From Alphaproteobacteria bacterium (GTDB lineage Bacteria; Pseudomonadota; Alphaproteobacteria; CAAGCB01; CAG-977): a DNA stretch of 64,000 nucleotides. The number at the start of each line of letters is the position of its first letter. Positions within the stretch are counted from its first letter, which is position 1. A program made the translations under genes and the position numbers. Below the pieces are notes generated by a model. The model was not told where the DNA came from and did not search any database. It was given only the letters and a program-made list of their open reading frames with translations. Location: the NCBI GenBank assembly GCA_900768845.1, contig CAAGEK010000025.1, positions 778 to 64,777 on the forward strand, given 5' to 3'. Positions 19,268 through 31,035 of this stretch are shown here, one piece after another.

Positions 19268-20599
19268 TTATCCGAAATCGTTGGGGGCGGGAGGCACTTC
19301 CGTACCTTCTTCCGAGTATTGTTTCAGCTTGTTGCGCAGGGTGCGGATGGATATGCCCAAAATGTTGGCGGCATGGGTTCTGTTGCCCAACGTGTGCTTT
19401 AACGTATCGATGATCAGGTTCTTTTCGACGTCGGCGACCGTGCGGCCGACCATGCCCGCAGTACCCGACAGAGCCGGATCGGAAGCGTTTTGATCGCCGG
19501 ATTGTTCGGTCAGCATGACGGCGTCCGCGTCGATTTCATTTCCCGTTGACAGGATGACGGCGCGGTGAATTGTATTTTCCAGTTCGCGCACATTCCCCGG
19601 CCATGAATATGCCATCAACTTTTTCTGCGCTTCGGCGGAAACCGGTTTGACGGGAATGGCGTTCAAATCCGAATATTTGCGCACGAAAAATTCCGTCAAC
19701 GGCAAAATGTCGCCTTTTCTGTCCCTCAGGGCGGGAATGGCGATGTTGACGACGTTCAAACGGAAATACAAATCTTCACGGAACAGCTTTTCCCTGACGG
19801 CTTCGTGCATATCCCTGTTTGAAGTCGCCAGAATGCGCACGTCGACGTTGACGGGGGCTTTGCCGCCGATGCGGTCGATTTGGCGTTCCTGAATGGCGCG
19901 CAACAGTTTCGCTTGCAACCGGACGTCCATTTCCGTGATTTCATCCAACAGCAATGTCCCGCCGTTCGCTTCTTCAAACTTGCCGATGCGTCGGGCGACC
20001 GCGCCGGTGAACGCGCCTTTTTCATAACCGAACAGTTCAGATTCCAAGAGGTTTTCGGGAATGGCCGCACAGTTGACGGCAATGAACGGTTCGGCGGAAC
20101 GTTTGGAATTGGCGTGAATGTATTTTGCAAAAACCTCCTTGCCCGTTCCCGATTCTCCCGTAATCAGGACGCTTGCCGCCGAAGGGGCGACCTGTTTCGC
20201 CAGTTTTAAAAGGCTTTCGGTGGCGGGATCTTTGAAAACGACTTGGGCGTTTTCCATGGAAACCGCACTGAGTACGGCTCCGATCAATTCCGCGTCCGGA
20301 GGCAGGGGGATGTATTCTTTCGCGCCGGCTTTGATGGCTTTGACGGCGGCTTTCGCATCGGCGGCGACGCCGCAGGCGACGACGGGAATGCTGATGCGTT
20401 CCTGATTCAGGCTTTCGACAAGGGAATAAATGTCCAAACGGACGTCCGCCATGATCAAATCCGCGCCGCGCCCCGAACGGAGCAGATCCAACGCCGCGTT
20501 TATATCGGGGGCGTGAATGACCGAACCGCCCTGTTTCGCAGCGATTTGCGCGGCGGATCCGATTTGACCGTCCATAGTTCCGATAAGCAGCAGACGCAT
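19268..20599 (-). CDS. flbD: sigma-54-dependent flagellar transcriptional activator (FlbD/FleR-type response regulator)
   Basis: Receiver-like N-terminus, an AAA+ core with GESGTGKE and ELFGYEKGAFTGA, and a C-terminal Fis-type HTH AANILGISIRTLRNKL. Confidence 0.9.
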   Translation of the reverse strand: MRLLLIGTMDGQIGSAAQIAAKQGGSVIHAPDINAALDLLRSGRGADLIMADVRLDIYSLVESLNQERISIPVVACGVAADAKAAVKAIKAGAKEYIPLPPDAELIGAVLSAVSMENAQVVFKDPATESLLKLAKQVAPSAASVLITGESGTGKEVFAKYIHANSKRSAEPFIAVNCAAIPENLLESELFGYEKGAFTGAVARRIGKFEEANGGTLLLDEITEMDVRLQAKLLRAIQERQIDRIGGKAPVNVDVRILATSNRDMHEAVREKLFREDLYFRLNVVNIAIPALRDRKGDILPLTEFFVRKYSDLNAIPVKPVSAEAQKKLMAYSWPGNVRELENTIHRAVILSTGNEIDADAVMLTEQSGDQNASDPALSGTAGMVGRTVADVEKNLIIDTLKHTLGNRTHAANILGISIRTLRNKLKQYSEEGTEVPPAPNDFG

Positions 20600-22976: not shown

Positions 22977-24599
22977 CTATCGCTCGTCATAAAGCCAGTT
23001 GCGGATGATGTTGACCGCTTCTTCGGGATGCTGTTCGATAATCTCCCCTATTTTTTTGACGGAAGACGCTTTGACGCGCCCCTCCACGCGGGCGATGTCG
23101 ATCAGCTCTTCTATTTGTGCCGCCGTTCCTCCGCTGACAACGTCCATATCCGGACCCGTCAGCTGGGGAGGCATTCCGTTTTGTGCCGGCATGAGCAAAT
23201 TCTCCTCTTCTTCGATGTCGGTCGGTTCAAACGCTTTGACAATCAAGGGGCGAACCACCAGTAAAATGACCAGAACGGCAACCAAGGCCACGCCCAGCCC
23301 TTCGACCATTTTTATGACTTCCTGCTTTGTAAAGCCCATGAACAGGATGGGATCGTCAGCCCTGAGCAGGTCTTCGGGGTTGAAAAAAGGCAGGTTGACG
23401 ACTTCGATCGTGTCGCCGCGGTTGGCGTCGTATCCGACGGCGGAACGCACCAACGCCGCCAGCAAATCCATTTCCCGTTCCGTCCTCGGCGTGTATTCGC
23501 GTGTTCCGTTCGGCAGGGTGCGATACGTTCCGTCAATGATGACGGCGGCGGAAATGCGTTTGATGACGCCGTTTTTGCGCGTTTGGCTGATGACTTGTTT
23601 GGATATTTCGTAGTTGACGGTTTCCTCCGTCCGATTCGCTTGGGACGTGACCTGATTGGCGTTTTTGACCTCGGCGTCCGGCAGGTTCTGTTCAACGCTG
23701 ACGATCGGTTCCTTTTCGTCGGTTTTCGAGTTTTCTTCAATCGTTGTCGAAGAGCGCAAAACCTGCGTTTCGGGATCGAACAGTTCCTTGTTGACGACGA
23801 CTTGGTCGAAATCCATTTCCAAAGCGATATTGACGCGAACCTTGTCATGTCCGACGGATTTTTCCAACAATTCCTGAACCGCACGCGTCAGGCGTTGTTC
23901 CTGATCCCTGCGCATTTCCTCGTTGGTCGACATCGTGCGTTGTTCTTCGGAAACGTATTCCTTGGTCAGCAAGGCTCCGCGGGTGTCCAAAATGGACACG
24001 TTTTGCACGTCCATTTTCGGTACGGCCGCGGCGACCAGACGCTGGACGCCTTCAACCTGTTTCGCGGTCAGGTTTTTCTTGTCTTCCATTTTGATGATGA
24101 CCGACGCCGAGGGTTTTTGTTCTTCGCGGGAAAACATCTCGCGTTTGGGCAGAACCAGATGGACGCGGGCGGCCTTGACATGATCGATGGCCTTGATCGT
24201 TCTGGCCAGTTCGCCTTCCAAAGCGCGCAACATCTGCAGGTTCATGACTTCGTGGCCGATGCCGGGGGATTGCGTCTTGTCAAACAATTCGTATCCGACG
24301 ACGCTTCCCGCGCCGGCGGTTTCGGCCAGCTGAACGCGCAATTTCAGGACTTCGCCGACGGGAACCTGAATTTCCGTGCCGTTTTTAAACAGCTTGTACG
24401 GCACGTTTTGTTCGTCCAGCCTTTCGATGATTTTTTTCGCTTCGGCGGGTTCCAGTTCGTTGAACAGGACGCCCGTTTCCGTGCCGCCCAGCCGTGTCGC
24501 CAGATAAATCAGAAAGCCCATCAGGAAAACGGCGATGCCGCCCATGGCTGCAAGGCGGGCGGTTCCAAGGCTTTTTAACGTTTGTATCAGCGAAATCAC
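22977..24599 (-). CDS. fliF: flagellar M-ring protein FliF
   Basis: 540 aa with an N-terminal TM helix, the YscJ/FliF fold region, a second TM helix near the C-terminus (GLGVALVAVLVILLVV) and a FliG-binding tail. Confidence 0.95.
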   Translation of the reverse strand: MISLIQTLKSLGTARLAAMGGIAVFLMGFLIYLATRLGGTETGVLFNELEPAEAKKIIERLDEQNVPYKLFKNGTEIQVPVGEVLKLRVQLAETAGAGSVVGYELFDKTQSPGIGHEVMNLQMLRALEGELARTIKAIDHVKAARVHLVLPKREMFSREEQKPSASVIIKMEDKKNLTAKQVEGVQRLVAAAVPKMDVQNVSILDTRGALLTKEYVSEEQRTMSTNEEMRRDQEQRLTRAVQELLEKSVGHDKVRVNIALEMDFDQVVVNKELFDPETQVLRSSTTIEENSKTDEKEPIVSVEQNLPDAEVKNANQVTSQANRTEETVNYEISKQVISQTRKNGVIKRISAAVIIDGTYRTLPNGTREYTPRTEREMDLLAALVRSAVGYDANRGDTIEVVNLPFFNPEDLLRADDPILFMGFTKQEVIKMVEGLGVALVAVLVILLVVRPLIVKAFEPTDIEEEENLLMPAQNGMPPQLTGPDMDVVSGGTAAQIEELIDIARVEGRVKASSVKKIGEIIEQHPEEAVNIIRNWLYDER

Positions 24600-24756
24600 G
24601 ACAATCTTCCCGATTTTGTATATAAATCAGCAAATCATACCAGAATCTTAAAAAATGAACATAAAAAAACGGTTAATAAGTAAAGATTTTGTAAAATTTA
24701 ACGGCTTGACTTTCATTTCGGTTGTATGTTTGAAAACGACCGTACATAATGACGGG

Positions 24757-26071
24757 ATGAAGAAAAACACCGAAGCGTTATGCCCTGTTTGCCGCCGTCG
24801 TCTTCCCGCCGAAAAAACGCGGAAAGGCTTTGACGTCTTTTGACACGCGTCTGTCCGGAACACGGCCTGTTTGAAACGAAAATATCCAAAGACGCCGGTC
24901 GTTTCTTTGACAAGACCTTTTCCGTCAAAGGCAAACCGTTCACACCGTCCGTTTCGCAAAAAACGGGGAGATGTCCGGACGATTGCGGGTAGTGCGACCG
25001 TCACGAACAGCACATCTGCACCGGATTGATTGAAGTGACCGACGTTTGCAATATGGCTTGTCCCGTGTGTTATTTAAAGGGGCGAACCACATTTCCGTCG
25101 AAGAGTTCGGGAGGCGGCTTGAAACGTTGCTGGCCGTTGAAAACGGGTCGCTTGACGTGTTGCAGATTTCCGGAGGCGAATGCACGCTTCATCCGGATTT
25201 CGACAGGTTGGTCGAAACGGCGGTTCGGGCGGGCGTCGGGCGCGTCCTGATCAACACGAACGGTTTGAAGTTGGCGGAGGACGGAGCCGTTTTCGAAACG
25301 GTTTTGCGCCATAAGGACAAGGTTGAGGTCTATCTGCAGTACGACGGTGCGGACGACGGCGTTTACGCCGATTTGCGCGGGCGGGCGATGGCCGGATTGA
25401 AACAGCGGGTCTTGGATCGTTTGGAAGAACGTGACGTCAAGGTTTGTCTGGCCGTGACGGTGTACCGGAAAAACCTGAAGGATTTGCCGGACATTCTGCG
25501 CACGGCCTGCCGCAGAAGCAACGTGACGGGCGTGACGTTCCAGCGGTTGGAAAAAACGGGAGCCGCACGGGAAAGCGATTTGGAAAGCGTGTTGCAAGAA
25601 GACATTTTGCACGCGCTGGCTCAAAGCGGATTGATGGAATACAAGGATTTGATCCCCTTGCCGTGTTCGCATGAAAACTGTACGTCTTTGGGCTTTTTGT
25701 TCTGTACGTCGGACAGGATTTATTCTTTGGGCTATTATGTCGATTTCACCAAATGCAAAGAAACGATTTCAAACCGCATCGCTTTTGACAAAACCGTACT
25801 GGATTATATGAAAAAAAACGTATGCAAGTGCTTTGTCGGAAAGGTTTTAGGGGATCGGTTCCTGTTGGACCGGTTGCAACAGTTTGCGTCCGCGGGGGAG
25901 GGGTCTTCGTATCGGGATATGAAAATCGTACGGATTATCGTCAAAAATTTTATGGACGCCCAAACGTTCGACTTTGAACGTGCGCGCAAATGTTGCGTCG
26001 GCGTTTCCGTCGGCGGCGGCAAAGTCATTCCGTTTTGCTTGTACAACAATTTAAAAGGGATGTTGCCATGA
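24757..26071 (+). pseudogene. disrupted radical SAM enzyme with N-terminal zinc-ribbon and twin CX3CX2C motifs
   Basis: The reading frame runs frame 1 (MKKNTEALCPVCRRRL...DVF), then frame 3 (LTRVCPEHG...CPDDCG*CDRHEQH...EVTDVCNMACPVCYLKG), then frame 2 (ANHISVEEF...SGGECTLHPDF...PFCLYNNLKG). There are one-base deficits at the T-run near 24837-24841 and the A/G-run near 25078-25084, plus an in-frame TAG at 24990-24992. Confidence 0.8.
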
Positions 26072-26439
26072 ACACGGAAACGCCGGCGGACGGTGCGGAA
26101 GCTTTTCCTTCGGACGGAACGCCCGCGCCCGAAAACGGCGGGGTTTGGCGGGAAGTCTTGTCCTTTATTCTGAAAGTGTTTTTGCTGTGTTTCATTTTTG
26201 TGGGAACGTGCGCTCCGTTGGGAGTGCTTTTCGTCGGCTTTTTTAACAGTCTGCCCGACGGCATCGGGCTTGCCACTTTCGGAAGCCTGTTGCTTCTTTG
26301 CGTAATATGCCTGTTCAAAGCCCGAAAAGAACCGCGCAAAAGCCATCGGTACGCCTTTTTCACCGTCGGCGGCCTTGCCGGAGGGTGGTTTGTTTTCCTG
26401 CTGTACGGTATTGTACGATCTTATATCAAGCATCATTAA
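26068..26439 (+). CDS. small polytopic membrane protein, paralog 1 (conserved GTC box)
   Basis: 123 aa from an ATG that overlaps the radical SAM stop (ATGA). Contains WREVLSFILKVFLLCFIFVGTCAPL and further hydrophobic helices. Confidence 0.65.
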   Translation: MNTETPADGAEAFPSDGTPAPENGGVWREVLSFILKVFLLCFIFVGTCAPLGVLFVGFFNSLPDGIGLATFGSLLLLCVICLFKARKEPRKSHRYAFFTVGGLAGGWFVFLLYGIVRSYIKHH

Positions 26440-26480
26440 ACAGGGCGTATTCTGAGCAAAAATCCGAAGGGGCGAAAAGT

Positions 26481-26771
26481 ATGGCGGAAGAAAATCCGGA
26501 AGAGGCGGGTGAAACGGAACGGCTGGAAAAACAGCCTCTCTGGAAGGAAATACTGACTTTTATCGTAACGGTCTTGTGGTTGGCGATGCTCTTTTCGGGA
26601 ACGTGCCTTCCTTTATTTCAATCGGACGGGCGGGCTGTTGAGATTTATACGGCAGTTTTTTCCGTAATCTGCCTTGTCTGGGCGGCGAAGGTGCGAAGAA
26701 ACGGCGTCCGTGCGGCTTTCCTTGTCATGGGAGTGCTGTTGGGATGGATTGCTTTGAACTTTTTATTGTGA
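26481..26771 (+). CDS. small polytopic membrane protein, paralog 2 (conserved GTC box)
   Basis: 96 aa with a GAAGGGG RBS about 8 nt upstream. LWKEILTFIVTVLWLAMLFSGTCLPL aligns with paralog 1, and the shared VICL...R.AF...G.L.GW pattern follows. Confidence 0.65.
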   Translation: MAEENPEEAGETERLEKQPLWKEILTFIVTVLWLAMLFSGTCLPLFQSDGRAVEIYTAVFSVICLVWAAKVRRNGVRAAFLVMGVLLGWIALNFLL

Positions 26772-26786
26772 GGGGGCGAGCCGGAG

Positions 26787-27443
26787 ATGCTGGCTTATTG
26801 CATTTGCATCGCAATCGGGTGTTTATGTGCGGCGACGGCGTATAAATATGCAGATTTTCCAAAACGTTCCAAAGATCCCGACGCGTTTATCGCGGGCGGT
26901 TTCGCCCTGATTTTGGGAGCCAAAATCCCCGTTTGGATTTCCTACGGGCTGTCTTGGGAAACGGTTGTTCAGGGCAAAAGTTTCGCCGGCGCGTTAATCG
27001 GCGCGTTTCTGGGATTGAATCTGTATAAAAGGCTTTCCGGTCGTACACGATCCGGCTTCGGTTCCGGCTTTGTCATTCCTTTGGCGATTGTCGCGGGGTT
27101 TGGAAAAATCGGGTGCTTTCTGGCCGGATGCTGTGCGGGACGGAAAACGGGAATGGCGTTTCCGGAGTTCTATCCCGCCCAATTGGTTGAAAGCGCGTTT
27201 CAGTTCACGGCCGCTTTTGTTTTGTGGCGGCTTTATAAACGCGGAATGCAGCCGGACAGGTTGTTTCCCCTGTATGCGGCGTGTTACCTGACAATGCGTT
27301 TCTTTGTCGAGTTTATCAGAACGGAACCCGTCGTTTTCGCAGGGCTGACCGTGTATCAGATTGCGGCTTTGGCCTTCATTCCCGTTTTCGTTTTTCTGTT
27401 CAAGCAAAGAGGGACTTATGGAAATCATCCGGACATTGGCTGA
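26787..27443 (+). CDS. short prolipoprotein diacylglyceryl transferase (Lgt)-family protein
   Basis: 218 aa with Lgt-type motifs GFGKIGCFLAGCCAGR, YPAQLVESAFQF and YLTMRFFVEFIRTEP. Confidence 0.75.
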   Translation: MLAYCICIAIGCLCAATAYKYADFPKRSKDPDAFIAGGFALILGAKIPVWISYGLSWETVVQGKSFAGALIGAFLGLNLYKRLSGRTRSGFGSGFVIPLAIVAGFGKIGCFLAGCCAGRKTGMAFPEFYPAQLVESAFQFTAAFVLWRLYKRGMQPDRLFPLYAACYLTMRFFVEFIRTEPVVFAGLTVYQIAALAFIPVFVFLFKQRGTYGNHPDIG

Positions 27444-28392
27444 ACGCTCGGGCGTTCCCGCCTTGTATATGTGGGCTTTGGGCGTGCTGTATCTGACGGG
27501 GGCGGTTCTGTTGGGAAGCGTCGCGTATAAATTCCGTATGTATGCCAAAATGAACCGGCAACCGGAGCAAAGAAAGAACTCCGTCGTTGACACGATGTCA
27601 ATGACGGCCGTTTTGGCGGCGTGTTTTCCTTTTATGGTCACTTCTTCGGGACGGATCGATTCGGGTCGGGAAACGTTTTTGTTTTTCGGGTTGGGGATTT
27701 TCCTGATGCTGTTCGGAACGGGATGGCATTTAAAGGCGAAAAAGGACATCGGGCGGTTCTGGTCGGATCAAATCGAAGTGCAACACGAACACCGGCCGGT
27801 TTTTTCCGGAGCGTATGCGTTGGCAAGACACCCGATGTACGGATCTTTGGTTTTGTGGGGATGGGGGGCGGCTTTGGCGTTCGGGAACCTGCCCGCCTTT
27901 TGCATTGTGACGTTCGTGTTCCTGCCGATGACGGCTTACCGTGCGGCGCAAGAGGAAAAAGTCTTGGAAACCGTCTGTCCCGATTATGCGTTTTACCGCC
28001 GGAATGTCGGGCGGCTTCTGCCCGCGTTCGGCGGAACCGCGGCTCTTGCCGTTCGGGTGTCGGCAATCGTGTGGTTCGGGTGGGAGATTTTTGCAGGAAT
28101 CACGCCCGCCGCGTTATTCTTGCTGGTCTTTGTCCATTTAGCTTTGGGATATATGCTTAAACCCGACAATGTCGCTTTTTCCTACCGGTCGAAATCGGGA
28201 ATGATGCTGGTCGTTTACGCGGCGTCTTTGCTTTATGCGCCCGTTTATCATTTTTATTGGATCATATGGGCGATGTTTGTTTATTCCTTGCACGGCCGGT
28301 GTCCCTGTATGCGCGTTTACGACAAATACCACCGCTGTCCGTGCTTTGCACTGTTGGAAAAATGCCTGTTAAAAAAAGACCCCCGAAAATAA
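27418..28392 (+). CDS. ICMT/PEMT-family membrane methyltransferase with Cys-rich C-terminal extension
   Basis: The ATG at 27418 has an AGAGGGA RBS. The ICMT-type core is GRFWSDQIEVQHEHRPVFSGAYALARHPMYGSLVLWGWG. Extra TM helices follow, and the tail is HGRCPCMRVYDKYHRCPC. Confidence 0.75.
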   Translation: MEIIRTLAERSGVPALYMWALGVLYLTGAVLLGSVAYKFRMYAKMNRQPEQRKNSVVDTMSMTAVLAACFPFMVTSSGRIDSGRETFLFFGLGIFLMLFGTGWHLKAKKDIGRFWSDQIEVQHEHRPVFSGAYALARHPMYGSLVLWGWGAALAFGNLPAFCIVTFVFLPMTAYRAAQEEKVLETVCPDYAFYRRNVGRLLPAFGGTAALAVRVSAIVWFGWEIFAGITPAALFLLVFVHLALGYMLKPDNVAFSYRSKSGMMLVVYAASLLYAPVYHFYWIIWAMFVYSLHGRCPCMRVYDKYHRCPCFALLEKCLLKKDPRK

Positions 28393-28431
28393 ATCGGGGG
28401 CGAAGTTTAAAGGGATGAGAAAAACGGCATA

Positions 28432-31035
28432 TCAGCGTTTGATCGTCATCAGCTCTTCCAACATCGAATCGGACGTCGTGATGATTTTCGCCGCCGCCGA
28501 GTAGGCGCGCTGGGTTGTAATCATGTTGGTGAATTCCGTCGCGATGTCCGCCGTGGAATTTTCCAACGCGGTTCCCGTGATCGCTCCAGATCCCGCTTCT
28601 CCCGCCGTCCGCAAGGTCGGTTGGCCGGAACGGTCGGTTTCGATCCATGTGTTCCCCGTCAAAGCTTCCATGCTGTTGGGATCGACAAAGGTCGCCAGCG
28701 GCACTTGGGCGATCGGGCGGGTTTCGCCGTTGTCGAACAAAGCCGTTACGATGCCTTCCTCGCTGATGGTCACGCCGACATAACTGCCGTATTTCGCGCC
28801 GTCCTGCTTGATGTAGTTCGTCGTGTAGTCGCCGGCCAGATGCGTCAGGCCGTTTGCGGTGTTTACGTCGCCCATAAACAGGGAAAGCTTGTTGGATTCA
28901 TCATAATTGCCGGTCATGTCTTCCGCGCCCGTCGCCCATTCGATGGAAATGCTGTCGACATTGATGTATTTCGGCGTTCCGTCGGCGTTGAAGCATACGG
29001 CGGGAATGCGCGATCCCGTTTCCGCATCGGCCGTGGCGTTGAAAGTGAACGTTTTGGTCACGACCAAGGGATCTCCGGCGTCCAGCGTATCGATAACGCT
29101 TTGCTGGCCGTTGGTTTTGCCTTTTCCGCTGACGGCGGCTCCGATGCCGTCAAAGGTTTGGAGCGTACCGGTAACGGACGATGCGGTAATCAGGTTCGAT
29201 GTGGAAATCAACGTCGAACCGCTGGTCTGGAACAGGTTGTAGCGTTCCGGATCGGGATCGTTCGCATAGGCTTTTTTGATTGCGGCGTTCAAAGCGTTCA
29301 TAACGTTCGCCGCCGTTGTGTCTTCGCCCGTCGCAATGCCGCTGATGTCGATTTGCAACGGATTGGTCGGATCTGCGCCGGCGGTCATGAACGTATAGGT
29401 TTTGCCGTCCAAAGTCACCGTCTGATTGTCATAATCGGCAAGGTTGTTGCTGGTGAAATTGATCCGCGCCGAATTCGCCGAAGACACCAGAATCGGCGTT
29501 CCCGAAGAGCTTTGATGAATTTCGATCGATGTTCCGCTGGCGACGAAACGGACGGGATCGACCGACGTTTCGGTGATGCCGACGTTCAACAGGGAAACCA
29601 GCTTTTGCAGGTTGATTTTCCCGTTTTCGTCAATTGCGCCTTTCAAATCGACGCCGACATTGGGCTGGGTCGCCGTGACGGGCGGCGTCGCGGTGGAGTT
29701 CGTGAATTGAAAAATCGTCGATCCCAGCGTTATGGTTTTGCCTTCGTATGCGGCGACGTCCGTGCTTTTGAAATCAATCGTCGCAATGTTTTTGATGTCC
29801 CAGTCGATTTCGGGCAGTTTGAAACGTCCCGAAGCAATGCCCGTTTCAGGGTCGGGATTGGCGGCGGACTGGATGCAGCTGAGGCAGTTCGAGGCGTCGA
29901 ACGTAATCGCCGCTCCGCCCAAAGACTGCTCTACGCTGACTTTCGTGCCGTCGGGCGTAAAACGGTTGCCGTTGGGGACGGTCGCTTTGATGACGTTCGC
30001 AAAACGTTCGATGGCGTCGGCGACCGTGACAATGCCGGATTTGATGTCGACTTTGACCAGCGTTTCATCGGGCGACGGGGAATACGTCAACGTGTCGTCC
30101 GTCGTAAATTCAAAGATATACTTTTTATCGCCTTCGACTTCCATGGAAATGGTCGAATGGTTGGACGGGATTTTCGTAAATTCCAACTGTGCGCGTGCGG
30201 AATAAACGTCGGGAGTCGTATCCTGCGACACTTCGCGGTTGCCGTACGTTACCAAAGTCGCCGCGCCCGAAGGCATTTGAACGTCCAAACCCCATGCGTT
30301 GGGCTGTTCTTTGGTGTATTGGAAATTGACGTTATGCGAATTTCCCAGCGAATCATAAATCAGCACGGCCGTTTTATGGCGTCCGCCTTTTTCCGGAGCG
30401 GTCGGGTCGAAAACGGGATCGCTGGAAGGCAAATTCGCGCCCAGCTGGATGTTACGCGTCGGCGTCGCACTGCCGCCGATGGTGGACAGGCTGATCGGTT
30501 TGAGGTTCGTGCTGTCAATGATGTTGTCGTTGACATAAACCGTATTTCCCAAGTCGTTTTTGTAGGCTTTCATATAATAGTTGTCGCCGACTTTGACGAC
30601 CGAAGCGTTCGGGGAACCGTCGTAAGGCAACAAAGTCCATCCTTGCAGATAATAGCCCCCCGTATTGACCAGATAGCCTTCACGGTCTTTTTGGAACGAT
30701 CCGGCACGCGTGTATCCCCACATATCGTTCGCTCCGGGGTTTGCGGCTTCGTTGACGACGAAAAAGCCCTGACCGGAAATGGCCATATCCGTCGAATACG
30801 ACGAAGACGACAGCAAACCTTGCGCGTCAATGCCCGAACTGGGGCGGCACTGGACGCCGCCGCACGAATACTGGGTCGTTGAAACCTGTTTGGTTACCAG
30901 CGTCGAAAATTTCGCCGTCGTCGCTTTGTAACCCGTCGTATTGATGTTTGCCACGTTATCGGAAATAATTCCCATCGCGCTGGCTTGCGAAGTCAATCCG
31001 GACACGCCGGATTTTAAAGCTCCGAATAAAGTCAT
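28432..31035 (-). CDS. flgE: flagellar hook protein FlgE (unusually large, 867 aa)
   Basis: The N-terminus SGVSGLTSQASAMGIISDNVANINTTGYK and the C-terminus ALENSTADIATEFTNMITTQRAYSAAAKIITTSDSMLEELM are hook/rod-family termini. A very long central insertion separates them. Confidence 0.93.
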   Translation of the reverse strand: MTLFGALKSGVSGLTSQASAMGIISDNVANINTTGYKATTAKFSTLVTKQVSTTQYSCGGVQCRPSSGIDAQGLLSSSSYSTDMAISGQGFFVVNEAANPGANDMWGYTRAGSFQKDREGYLVNTGGYYLQGWTLLPYDGSPNASVVKVGDNYYMKAYKNDLGNTVYVNDNIIDSTNLKPISLSTIGGSATPTRNIQLGANLPSSDPVFDPTAPEKGGRHKTAVLIYDSLGNSHNVNFQYTKEQPNAWGLDVQMPSGAATLVTYGNREVSQDTTPDVYSARAQLEFTKIPSNHSTISMEVEGDKKYIFEFTTDDTLTYSPSPDETLVKVDIKSGIVTVADAIERFANVIKATVPNGNRFTPDGTKVSVEQSLGGAAITFDASNCLSCIQSAANPDPETGIASGRFKLPEIDWDIKNIATIDFKSTDVAAYEGKTITLGSTIFQFTNSTATPPVTATQPNVGVDLKGAIDENGKINLQKLVSLLNVGITETSVDPVRFVASGTSIEIHQSSSGTPILVSSANSARINFTSNNLADYDNQTVTLDGKTYTFMTAGADPTNPLQIDISGIATGEDTTAANVMNALNAAIKKAYANDPDPERYNLFQTSGSTLISTSNLITASSVTGTLQTFDGIGAAVSGKGKTNGQQSVIDTLDAGDPLVVTKTFTFNATADAETGSRIPAVCFNADGTPKYINVDSISIEWATGAEDMTGNYDESNKLSLFMGDVNTANGLTHLAGDYTTNYIKQDGAKYGSYVGVTISEEGIVTALFDNGETRPIAQVPLATFVDPNSMEALTGNTWIETDRSGQPTLRTAGEAGSGAITGTALENSTADIATEFTNMITTQRAYSAAAKIITTSDSMLEELMTIKR

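Follow-up and report, generated by a model that had tools for sequence, protein, structure and literature searches.

What does a compact block of five genes do in the middle of a flagellar gene cluster? The question is raised by a 64,000-nucleotide (nt) stretch of alphaproteobacterial DNA (contig CAAGEK010000025.1; the whole stretch is called the window below, and positions refer to it). Between fliF and flgE, this stretch carries a 3.7-kb block of genes that are all encoded on the plus strand. They comprise a pseudogene of a radical S-adenosylmethionine (SAM) enzyme that resembles Tes and TrsS (rSAM; 24757-26071), genes for two small transmembrane (TM) proteins of 123 amino acids (aa; 26068-26439) and 96 aa (26481-26771), a gene for a 218-aa paralogue of Lgt with seven TM helices and no head domain (26787-27443), and a gene for a 324-aa methyltransferase with the ICMT fold (27418-28392). 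The block is a copy of a conserved, recurrent and horizontally transferred membrane module of four protein families.

An earlier interpretation, made from the letters of the DNA alone (the sequence-only reading), had proposed that these genes form an undescribed cassette for the modification of membrane lipids or lipoproteins. Its description of the locus is borne out by the list of open reading frames (ORFs) and the raw sequence: the five genes are co-oriented, and the junctions are exact: the first two genes share an ATGA at 26068-26071, the next two gaps measure 41 and 15 nt, and the last two genes overlap by 26 nt. Its family assignments (Radical_SAM, LGT and ICMT/PEMT) are all correct according to Pfam profiles. 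The repaired rSAM protein matches Zn_ribbon_HMPTM (PF23545, E-value 9e-14) and Radical_SAM (PF04055, 7e-12), the Lgt-like protein matches LGT (6e-22) and the methyltransferase matches ICMT (3e-10) and PEMT (6e-8). The two small proteins are indeed paralogues (BLASTP, 34% identity, E-value 5e-14); protein 1 belongs to no Pfam or NCBIfam family and protein 2 to no Pfam family.

A cassette shared by distant phyla

In a scan of GTDB with one genome per species, 590 relatives were found, and the best 79 loci were examined with hidden Markov models (HMMs) of the cassette proteins. The four families occur together in Elusimicrobiota, Alphaproteobacteria, Kiritimatiellia, Goldbacteria, Cloacimonadota, Desulfobacterota, Acidobacteriota, Planctomycetota and Omnitrophota, i.e., in at least eight phyla. 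The order rSAM, small TM protein(s), LGT and ICMT is found with unrelated flanks in Candidatus Avelusimicrobium, Rhizomicrobium electricum, Kiritimatiellia and Goldbacteria, and cassettes carry one to three small membrane proteins. An orthologous group is formed by loci L011-L038 (L and P numbers are labels of the compared loci and proteins), which come from Elusimicrobiaceae, Alphaproteobacteria, Kiritimatiellia, Cloacimonadota and Desulfocapsaceae. In 22 of these loci rSAM is followed by LGT and ICMT, five end at a contig edge and one (L029) is truncated. In the latter (L029:2445-5716), rSAM and two small-protein genes are succeeded on the opposite strand by a gene for a tyrosine recombinase (integrase); this locus was considered as a counter-example and rejected as such, because the cassette is cut by the integrase gene. 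The C-terminus of one of its small proteins, C-G-L-I, resembles a CaaX tail.

More distant homologues, with 29-36% identity and mostly from Planctomycetota, have an LGT-like gene directly downstream of rSAM in most loci, and ICMT is usually absent. A search starting from the ICMT-like protein revealed the four families in other gene orders in three lineages. In Terracidiphilus (Acidobacteriota; L090 and L091) the order is LGT, small, small, lipoprotein, rSAM and ICMT; in Planctomycetaceae (L092 and L093) it is rSAM, LGT, ICMT, small and small; in Omnitrophota (L072) it is LGT, lipoprotein, small, ICMT, small, small and rSAM. The cassette is also present in a metagenome-assembled genome (MAG) of Acidobacteriaceae, and acidobacterial and Omnitrophota cassettes additionally encode a protein of approximately 180 aa with a classical lipoprotein signal. 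The sequence-only reading stood or fell with co-occurrence of its families in other genomes. This co-occurrence was found with unrelated flanks, far beyond chance, in every sufficiently long orthologous locus examined.

Clustering of the neighbouring ORFs yielded no further universal partner. In Elusimicrobiaceae, a MarR gene and an LplT-Aas fusion (a transporter of the major facilitator superfamily, an acyltransferase and an AMP-binding domain) lie immediately upstream on the same strand, a position that is occupied in Omnitrophota by genes for MarR, a hexapeptide acyltransferase, an AMP-binding enzyme and an alpha/beta-hydrolase. LplT-Aas is a system for the re-acylation of lysophospholipids in Gram-negative envelopes (PMC11416262). 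Neighbours of the sulfur, selenium or arsenic type (ArsP_1, Se_S_carrier, Sulf_transp, YHS/thioredoxin) are sporadic. Genes for an ArsP_1 permease, a Se/S-carrier-like protein and YedE-type sulfur transport are located directly downstream of the Omnitrophota cassette (L072:8326-11696), and an ArsP_1-like gene lies near a Marinimicrobia locus (L086:10270-11175). In 16 Planctomycetota loci (e.g., L075:5378-6079, L048:5694-6374 and L067:4121-4819), a membrane protein of approximately 230 aa that belongs to no Pfam or NCBIfam family is encoded upstream of rSAM-LGT on the same strand; its gene often precedes those of small proteins with a zinc ribbon and TM helices.

No description of the cassette was found in the literature searched, the TrsS-defining paper (Haft & Tolstoy 2025) lying outside its coverage; as far as these searches reach, the claim that the cassette is undescribed holds. 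Public records use the generic names 'radical SAM protein', 'prolipoprotein diacylglyceryl transferase' and 'isoprenylcysteine carboxylmethyltransferase family protein', and NCBIfam and Pfam hold no specific model for any of the four families.

Insertion and decay of the window copy

In the window, the block is flanked by fliF (22977-24599) and flgE (28432-31035), both on the minus strand. A related species (L099-L103, e.g., L099:3575-7988), in which fliF and flgE have approximately 82% nucleotide identity to those of the window, presents the empty site: the spacer between flgE and fliF measures 187 nt and holds no cassette. Window positions 24600-24699 match the first ~100 nt of this spacer, and positions 28367-28431 match its last ~60 nt, including the terminator-like hairpin of flgE that a terminator scan places at 28379..28401 on the minus strand. 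The inserted block therefore runs from approximately 24700 to 28366 on the plus strand and replaces 26 nt of spacer. No target-site duplication was seen at the insertion borders. The ICMT-like gene takes its final codons and its stop from the ancestral terminator DNA of flgE. The empty site thus shows that the cassette is an accessory insertion, as had been suspected; the accompanying description of the site as a junction of two flagellar operons has to be corrected, since in the empty-site relative fliK-flgD-flgE-fliF-fliG-fliH-fliN is one co-directional array. The alignment also settles the start of the first gene. A gene call of 474 aa from the ATG at 24655, as made for protein P0001, was rejected because this ATG belongs to ancestral spacer shared with the empty site, and the homologues start with MKK; the true start of rSAM is therefore at 24757.

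That the first gene is disrupted, as the sequence-only reading had noticed, was established by comparison with a metagenomic relative (L001-L003) that has 98% DNA identity, the cassette at the same position between fliF and flgE, and an intact rSAM gene. The intact protein of this relative, P0001, and the window protein after repair share 97% identity. Relative to L001, the plus-strand window gene bears three lesions. At 24838..24843, a run of five T is reduced to four (24838-24841), a -1 frameshift that creates a TGA at 24841-24843 (DNA alignment with L001). At 24990..24992, the TGG codon for Trp in the conserved CG-W-C motif has become TAG (protein alignment and codon comparison). At 25075..25076, a 7-nt deletion of CGGGGAC, part of the sequence coding for CYFGDKG, causes a second frameshift (alignment with L001, L096, L097 and L098). 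Recoding of the stops as selenocysteine (TGA 24841) or pyrrolysine (TAG 24990) was considered and rejected, because the zinc ribbon continues in the other frame and L001 has the fifth T and TGG.

A sister strain (L096-L098), for which three independent samples gave the same assembled sequence, shares 99.7% identity with L001. Its rSAM gene (L096:4501-5924, L097:2753-4176 and L098:4315-5738) has one lesion that is not shared with the window, i.e., a 1-nt deletion in an A-run corresponding to window positions 25469-25473, and its other four cassette genes are intact. A sequencing artefact is an unlikely cause of the frameshifts, as one window lesion is a 7-nt deletion, another is a substitution, and the sister-strain frameshift is identical in three samples. 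The four independent lesions known in the species, all of them within the rSAM gene, support the suspicion that the module is decaying, and the rSAM gene has been lost repeatedly in this species. This gene makes up 36% of the cassette, and under uniform decay all four lesions would fall in it with a probability of approximately 0.36^4, or ~2%, a value that rests on small numbers. The counts of synonymous and non-synonymous differences between the window and L001 are 13/10 for rSAM, 10/6 for LGT, 10/7 for ICMT, 18/9 for fliG and 39/16 for flgE. As the ratios of LGT and ICMT are like those of the flagellar genes, the downstream genes look constrained and the pseudogenization looks recent. In the window strain, the rSAM gene is dead, and the remaining cassette genes are intact and look constrained. 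In small protein 1, the C-terminal ~15 aa are frameshifted, giving 123 aa instead of the 126 aa of most relatives; a -2/+9 nt indel pair at 26404-26439 alters this tail with respect to all close relatives, and may represent a fifth, milder lesion of the cassette.

Rfam and tRNA scans of the 64-kb window gave no match and no rRNA was found either, and a promoter scan gave no signal above background. Among the PADLOC defence models, the rSAM protein has only generic core similarity to pVip (E-value 6e-10) and the other four proteins have no match; the cassette as a defence system was rejected on this basis. In the surrounding flagellar cluster, FlgE is unusually long (867 aa; 28432-31035), and a gene for a sigma-54 activator (19268-20599) is located downstream of fliN.

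The proteins of the cassette

The rSAM enzyme consists of an N-terminal zinc-ribbon/rubredoxin-like domain, the auxiliary motif CPDDCG(W)CxxHxQHxC, the rSAM motif CNMACPVC and a C-terminal CC...C cluster. Its invariant residues are C9, C12, C33 and H36; C73, C77, C80 and C88; C98, C102 and C105; and C304, C309, C413, C414 and C428. The best curated family is TrsS (NF045646), which is matched over nearly its full length (protein 4-431 against profile 2-430 of 441) with 258 bits against a cut-off of 490. Tes (NF045702) gives 195 bits against a cut-off of 450, and only over profile positions 2-281 of 486. Membership in either family was rejected as both scores are below the cut-offs, which are reached by none of seven other bacterial relatives. 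Judged from these profiles, the enzyme is best classed as a member of the Tes/HMPTM/TrsS superfamily, within the clade of bacterial Tes homologues. The closest solved structure is the archaeal glycerol dialkyl glycerol tetraether (GDGT) enzyme GDGT-MAS (PDB 7TOL, E-value 5e-43), with only residues 33-312 and 427-469 aligned.

With Tes/GDGT-MAS the cassette enzyme shares the N-terminal CxxC...CxxH zinc-ribbon/rubredoxin-like domain, the CPxDCGxCxxH auxiliary motif, CxxxCxxC and the C-terminal FMDAxxFD...CC...PFC. It differs in the middle ~110 residues, which do not align, in having its own invariant PLPCSHxNCTS, and in its constant company of Lgt-like and small Cys proteins, a context that was not found mentioned for Tes or bacterial Tes homologues; the window copy differs further in being a pseudogene, with two frameshifts and one nonsense codon. 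With TrsS it has the full-length profile match in common, whereas the window enzyme has no selenocysteine codon: no in-frame TGA aligns with a Cys, and the TGA at 24841 is a product of the frameshift. Two rSAM genes from Planctomycetota (L044:8117-8119 and L050) do contain an in-frame TGA (...ACCAPGES-TGA-GP...), after which the frame continues to the conserved C-terminus; this is a candidate selenocysteine site in a clade below the TrsS cut-off. A bacterial system for the coupling of lipid tails is Mss with Ger/PlsA, reportedly the system of Sahonero-Canavesi and co-workers from 2022. What it would have in common with the cassette is rSAM-dependent coupling of lipid tails within a gene context of lipid remodelling, but Mss is a different rSAM family with which no Lgt-like, ICMT-like or Cys-bearing small proteins have been described. 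Bacterial Tes homologues are known only by homology and are hypothesized to make membrane-spanning lipids (PMC8941075, PMC11214058, PMC13459092).

The Lgt-like protein was modeled by AlphaFold2 (AF2) with a mean confidence (pLDDT) of 89 and seven TM helices, and E. coli Lgt (5AZB) is its only Foldseek match with an E-value below 1e-3. Residues Y167, R171, E175 and R178 correspond to Y235, R239, E243 and R246 of E. coli Lgt and are invariant in the homologue alignment; the E. coli residues are intolerant of mutation (PMC4728403). The orientation is predicted to be that of Lgt as well, N-out and C-in with a periplasmic active site. Other hallmarks are missing. The Lgt signature GRLGNFINGELWG (G142-RLGNFINGELW-G154, with N146 and E151) is absent; in its place stands GKIGCFLAGCCAG at 27102-27140, corresponding to R143K, N146C and E151C. 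The equivalent of H103-GGL reads GKSFAGALIG, with Ala (A, M, L or G in homologues) in place of the His, which is Tyr or Trp in Gram-positive Lgts. Studies of Lgts have found H103, N146 and E151 to be essential or invariant (PMC4728403; bioRxiv 10.1101/2025.03.27.645668). Instead of the periplasmic head of ~50 residues between TM4 and TM5 of E. coli Lgt (PMC4728403), only ~17 residues join these helices (96-113 and 131-151 in the model). The curated Lgt equivalogs are missed (NF000778, 61 against 334 bits; TIGR00544, 29.6 against 118.9). The Lgt-like protein also differs from E. coli Lgt in that its gene is part of a mobile accessory cassette and that its presumed targets are polytopic or C-terminal-motif membrane proteins with Thr at -1, not secreted lipoproteins.

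The three Cys that the altered motif contains (C110, C115 and C116) are invariant in 27 homologues. This triad was taken for a time as proof against a transferase role, an argument that was withdrawn because the same motif occurs in P0190 (L094:6001-6768), a 255-aa Lgt with GRIGCFLAGCCYG at the N146/E151 motif, encoded apart from any cassette among TatD, an RnmV-like Toprim protein and KsgA on a Firmicute-like contig. As a similar Cys motif is present in a stand-alone Lgt in a housekeeping context, the motif is no hallmark of the cassette and does not conflict with Lgt activity. P0190 suggests that a whole lineage of presumably genuine Lgts uses Cys at the positions of N146 and E151.

The sequences of the small membrane proteins diverge fast. 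Their only strongly kept feature is a Cys in a lipobox-like motif, (F/V)(G/M)TC, which reads FIFVGTC in small protein 1 (Cys48, 26209-26211) and MLFSGTC in small protein 2 (Cys42, 26604-26606), the latter matching the HMM of the motif; PFLLFMTCMGIIALAN is an example peptide. In 34 non-redundant instances, position -3 is F/V, -2 is G/M/L and -1 is Thr in 27, followed by the invariant Cys, by L/I/V and by G/P/L. The motif adjoins the rSAM gene in nearly every orthologous locus. Compared with the lipobox rule [LVI][ASTVI][GAS]C, the Lys/Arg, the hydrophobic helix and the invariant Cys are seen, and position -1 is mostly Thr. The motif Cys always ends a helix that is preceded by Lys/Arg. This helix is predicted to run from in to out, which would place the Cys at the outer leaflet. 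Two positions of the motif occur: within TM1, which is the case in the window, and at the extreme C-terminus with 3-13 residues after the Cys. The C-terminal type is found in Elusimicrobiaceae, Kiritimatiellia, Omnitrophota and Planctomycetota, and by a crude criterion an ORF ending in a TM helix, Cys and 5-13 aa directly precedes rSAM in 26 of 51 distant loci. In one Elusimicrobiaceae MAG (L012:4498-6111), the reading frame of rSAM continues at its C-terminus into a small Cys-motif protein. Such a fusion may be natural or result from misassembly; it fits a cytoplasmic N-terminus of the small protein and a physical association with rSAM.

The ICMT-like protein (AF2 pLDDT 87.5) matches the methyltransferase Ma-ICMT in Foldseek (4A2N, E-value 6e-6, TMt 0.71) as well as 5V7P. 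The catalytic part covers approximately residues 1-205, superposes on Ma-ICMT and shares with ICMT/Ste14 the ICMT fold and the conserved SAM-binding motifs R137-H138-P139-M140-Y141 (RHPMY) and E179/E180 (EE). The score for the ICMT equivalog NF040696 is 69 bits against a cut-off of 160. Unlike ICMT/Ste14, the cassette protein adds, in its C-terminal 120 residues, four extra TM helices and a Cys-rich CPC...CPC tail, GRCPCMRVYDKYHRCPCFALLEKC (consensus NCPCMxVYxKYxxCPC), without known family. The idea that this extension is DUF2892/YgaP-like was rejected, as there is no Pfam match even at E<=1. The conceptual order of the eukaryotic CaaX pathway, in which a Cys is lipidated and then methylated, is similar, but the cassette has neither a prenyltransferase nor a CaaX protease, and its Cys is predicted on the opposite side of the membrane.

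A possible lipidation and tailoring pathway

How could these four families work together? The reading that we tentatively favor is that the module lipidates the Cys of the small proteins by means of the Lgt paralogue, remodels the lipid tails by means of the Tes-like rSAM enzyme and methylates the product by means of the ICMT-like enzyme. Cys lipidation is, to our knowledge, the sole chemistry known for the Lgt fold. The Lgt paralogue, which keeps the constellation of Y, R, E and R for catalysis and binding of phosphatidylglycerol (PG), would transfer a diacylglyceryl or related lipid onto the motif Cys at the periplasmic leaflet, and the unusual Thr at -1 would account for the need of a dedicated paralogue. 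The cytoplasmic N-terminus of the small protein would hold the rSAM enzyme at the membrane, where it would use Tes-type chemistry to activate unactivated C-H bonds at the alkyl-tail termini and to couple or cross-link the tails. The ICMT-like enzyme, working from the cytoplasmic side, would then methylate the product on a carboxylate or phosphate. With rSAM inactivated, at most the lipidation and methylation steps would be left in the window strain. An unlikely elaboration of this pathway is that a dedicated Lgt paralogue acting on a Thr-type lipobox, combined with Tes-type cross-linking, gives rise to an ICMT-methylated, macrocyclic or membrane-spanning covalent protein anchor.

The sequence-only reading had already likened the cassette to a substrate with its tailoring enzymes. 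The invariant lipobox-like Cys at the predicted outer end of a helix speaks for this part. Its further idea that the ICMT-like enzyme acts on a lipidated C-terminal Cys does not fit the small proteins of the window, in which 50-75 residues follow the Cys and the Cys itself is predicted to face the periplasm, away from SAM. Several points weigh against the favored pathway as a whole. Thr at -1 departs from the canonical rule of G/A/S in the lipobox, and the small proteins could be anchors instead of substrates. The Lgt-like protein has lost H103, N146, E151 and the head domain, and its acidobacterial counterpart two of the three triad Cys. Some cassettes are without ICMT, and in L032, L034 and L035 no small ORF is present under the criteria used. 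The statements on topology are based on the positive-inside rule only. On that topology, the active sites of rSAM and ICMT should be cytoplasmic and the Cys periplasmic, so that the tails would have to be reached through the bilayer or be flipped.

The main competing explanation, which we consider somewhat unlikely, is that the same enzymes act on free lipids. The Tes homologue would couple tails of phospholipids such as PG into membrane-spanning or macrocyclic lipids, the Lgt-fold protein would bind and present PG or exchange the head group, the ICMT/PEMT-like enzyme would methylate the head group and the small proteins would be structural or anchoring. It has on its side that GDGT-MAS/Tes is the nearest solved structure and that Tes homologues of Acidobacteria and Planctomycetes are candidate synthases of membrane-spanning lipids (PMC8941075, PMC11214058), the cassette being found in Terracidiphilus and the Acidobacteriaceae MAG. 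For tail coupling in bacteria, a route through intermediates that bear PG has been suggested (PMC13274423), and Lgt uses PG as its lipid substrate (PMC4728403). The L012 fusion suits an anchoring role, Aas and acyl-activating genes are among the neighbours, and the ICMT family includes a lipid A phosphate methyltransferase, LmtA, the match with which is weak. However, coupling of free lipids is a poor account of the lone conserved lipobox-like Cys in small proteins that otherwise evolve fast and are duplicated, and of LGT and ICMT staying intact after the loss of rSAM. The carriers, moreover, are mostly gut or rumen anaerobes, and we know of no report of membrane-spanning lipids from these. 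The bacterial synthase of such lipids that has been shown experimentally is Mss, a different enzyme (PMC13159169, PMC13459092).

Other explanations give the small proteins or the Cys motifs a different role. It is quite improbable that the small proteins are precursors similar to those of peptides that are made on the ribosome and modified after translation (RiPPs), which would be lipidated at the Cys and cleaved by signal peptidase II before it or by a protease after it, releasing a short lipidated and possibly carboxyl-methylated peptide for signaling, surface or host interaction. The small genes do occur as tandem, fast-diverging copies like precursor genes, many forms end 3-13 residues after the Cys (LLFMTC-MGIIALAN* in Elusimicrobiaceae, LLLLGMC-GLI* in Kiritimatiellia, LLGTC-FLKWFY* in Omnitrophota and FFVGC-AMLLM* in Planctomycetota), and eukaryotic enzymes with the ICMT fold, to which the 4A2N and 5V7P matches point, act on a lipidated Cys at the C-terminus, but proteins of the window type have two more TM helices past the Cys, C-terminal-type small proteins are often found in cassettes without ICMT, and clustering of the neighbours yielded no recurrent protease gene. 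A role in the handling of thiols, selenium or metalloids, in which the Cys-rich membrane motifs GCxxxGCC, CPC...CPC and GTC would be binding or relay sites for a soft metal or chalcogen, with a thiol or selenol as the substrate of the ICMT-like methyltransferase and a C-S or C-Se bond formed by rSAM, is very improbable. The Cys triad is shared with the stand-alone Lgt in its housekeeping context, and ArsP_1, Se/S-carrier or sulfur-transport neighbours (L072 and L086) and a selenoprotein-like YHS/thioredoxin neighbour (L075) do not recur across clades and are not seen near the window copy; TrsS, a radical SAM (seleno)protein family, is the nearest curated one, and two planctomycete homologues have an in-frame TGA, but the TrsS cut-off is not reached. 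That the genes are chance neighbours and the Lgt-like gene is the ordinary lgt of the cell, as the public annotation 'prolipoprotein diacylglyceryl transferase' would have it, can practically be dismissed: chance adjacency is already refuted by the recurrence in at least eight phyla with unrelated flanks, the block is missing at the empty site, and the score of 61 bits against a cut-off of 334 and the lost residues and head domain speak against an ordinary lgt.

For the window strain, these results mean that the cassette is an accessory, partly dead insertion, for which a role in flagellar function is unlikely. R. electricum is a cultured carrier, and natural strains with an intact or a frameshifted rSAM gene allow comparison. 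The cassette further places one class of 'second lgt' genes in a functional context, and hints that membrane proteins that are polytopic or have a C-terminal motif may be lipidated after translation.

Branched GDGTs (brGDGTs) are lipids that are much used as palaeoclimate proxies. Since 2022, bacterial homologues of tetraether synthase (Tes) have been listed as candidate makers of these lipids. A large part of the clade of bacterial Tes homologues is now seen to be genetically tied to an Lgt-fold protein, to small proteins with a lipobox-like Cys and often to an ICMT-fold methyltransferase, and the cassette thereby supplies testable partners and candidate substrates for these enzymes. If the covalent-anchor pathway were true, many bacterial Tes homologues, among them those of Acidobacteriota and Planctomycetota, would remodel protein-linked lipid, instead of or besides synthesizing bulk brGDGTs. 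The presence of a Tes homologue alone is to be treated with caution, as an unsafe marker of brGDGT production.

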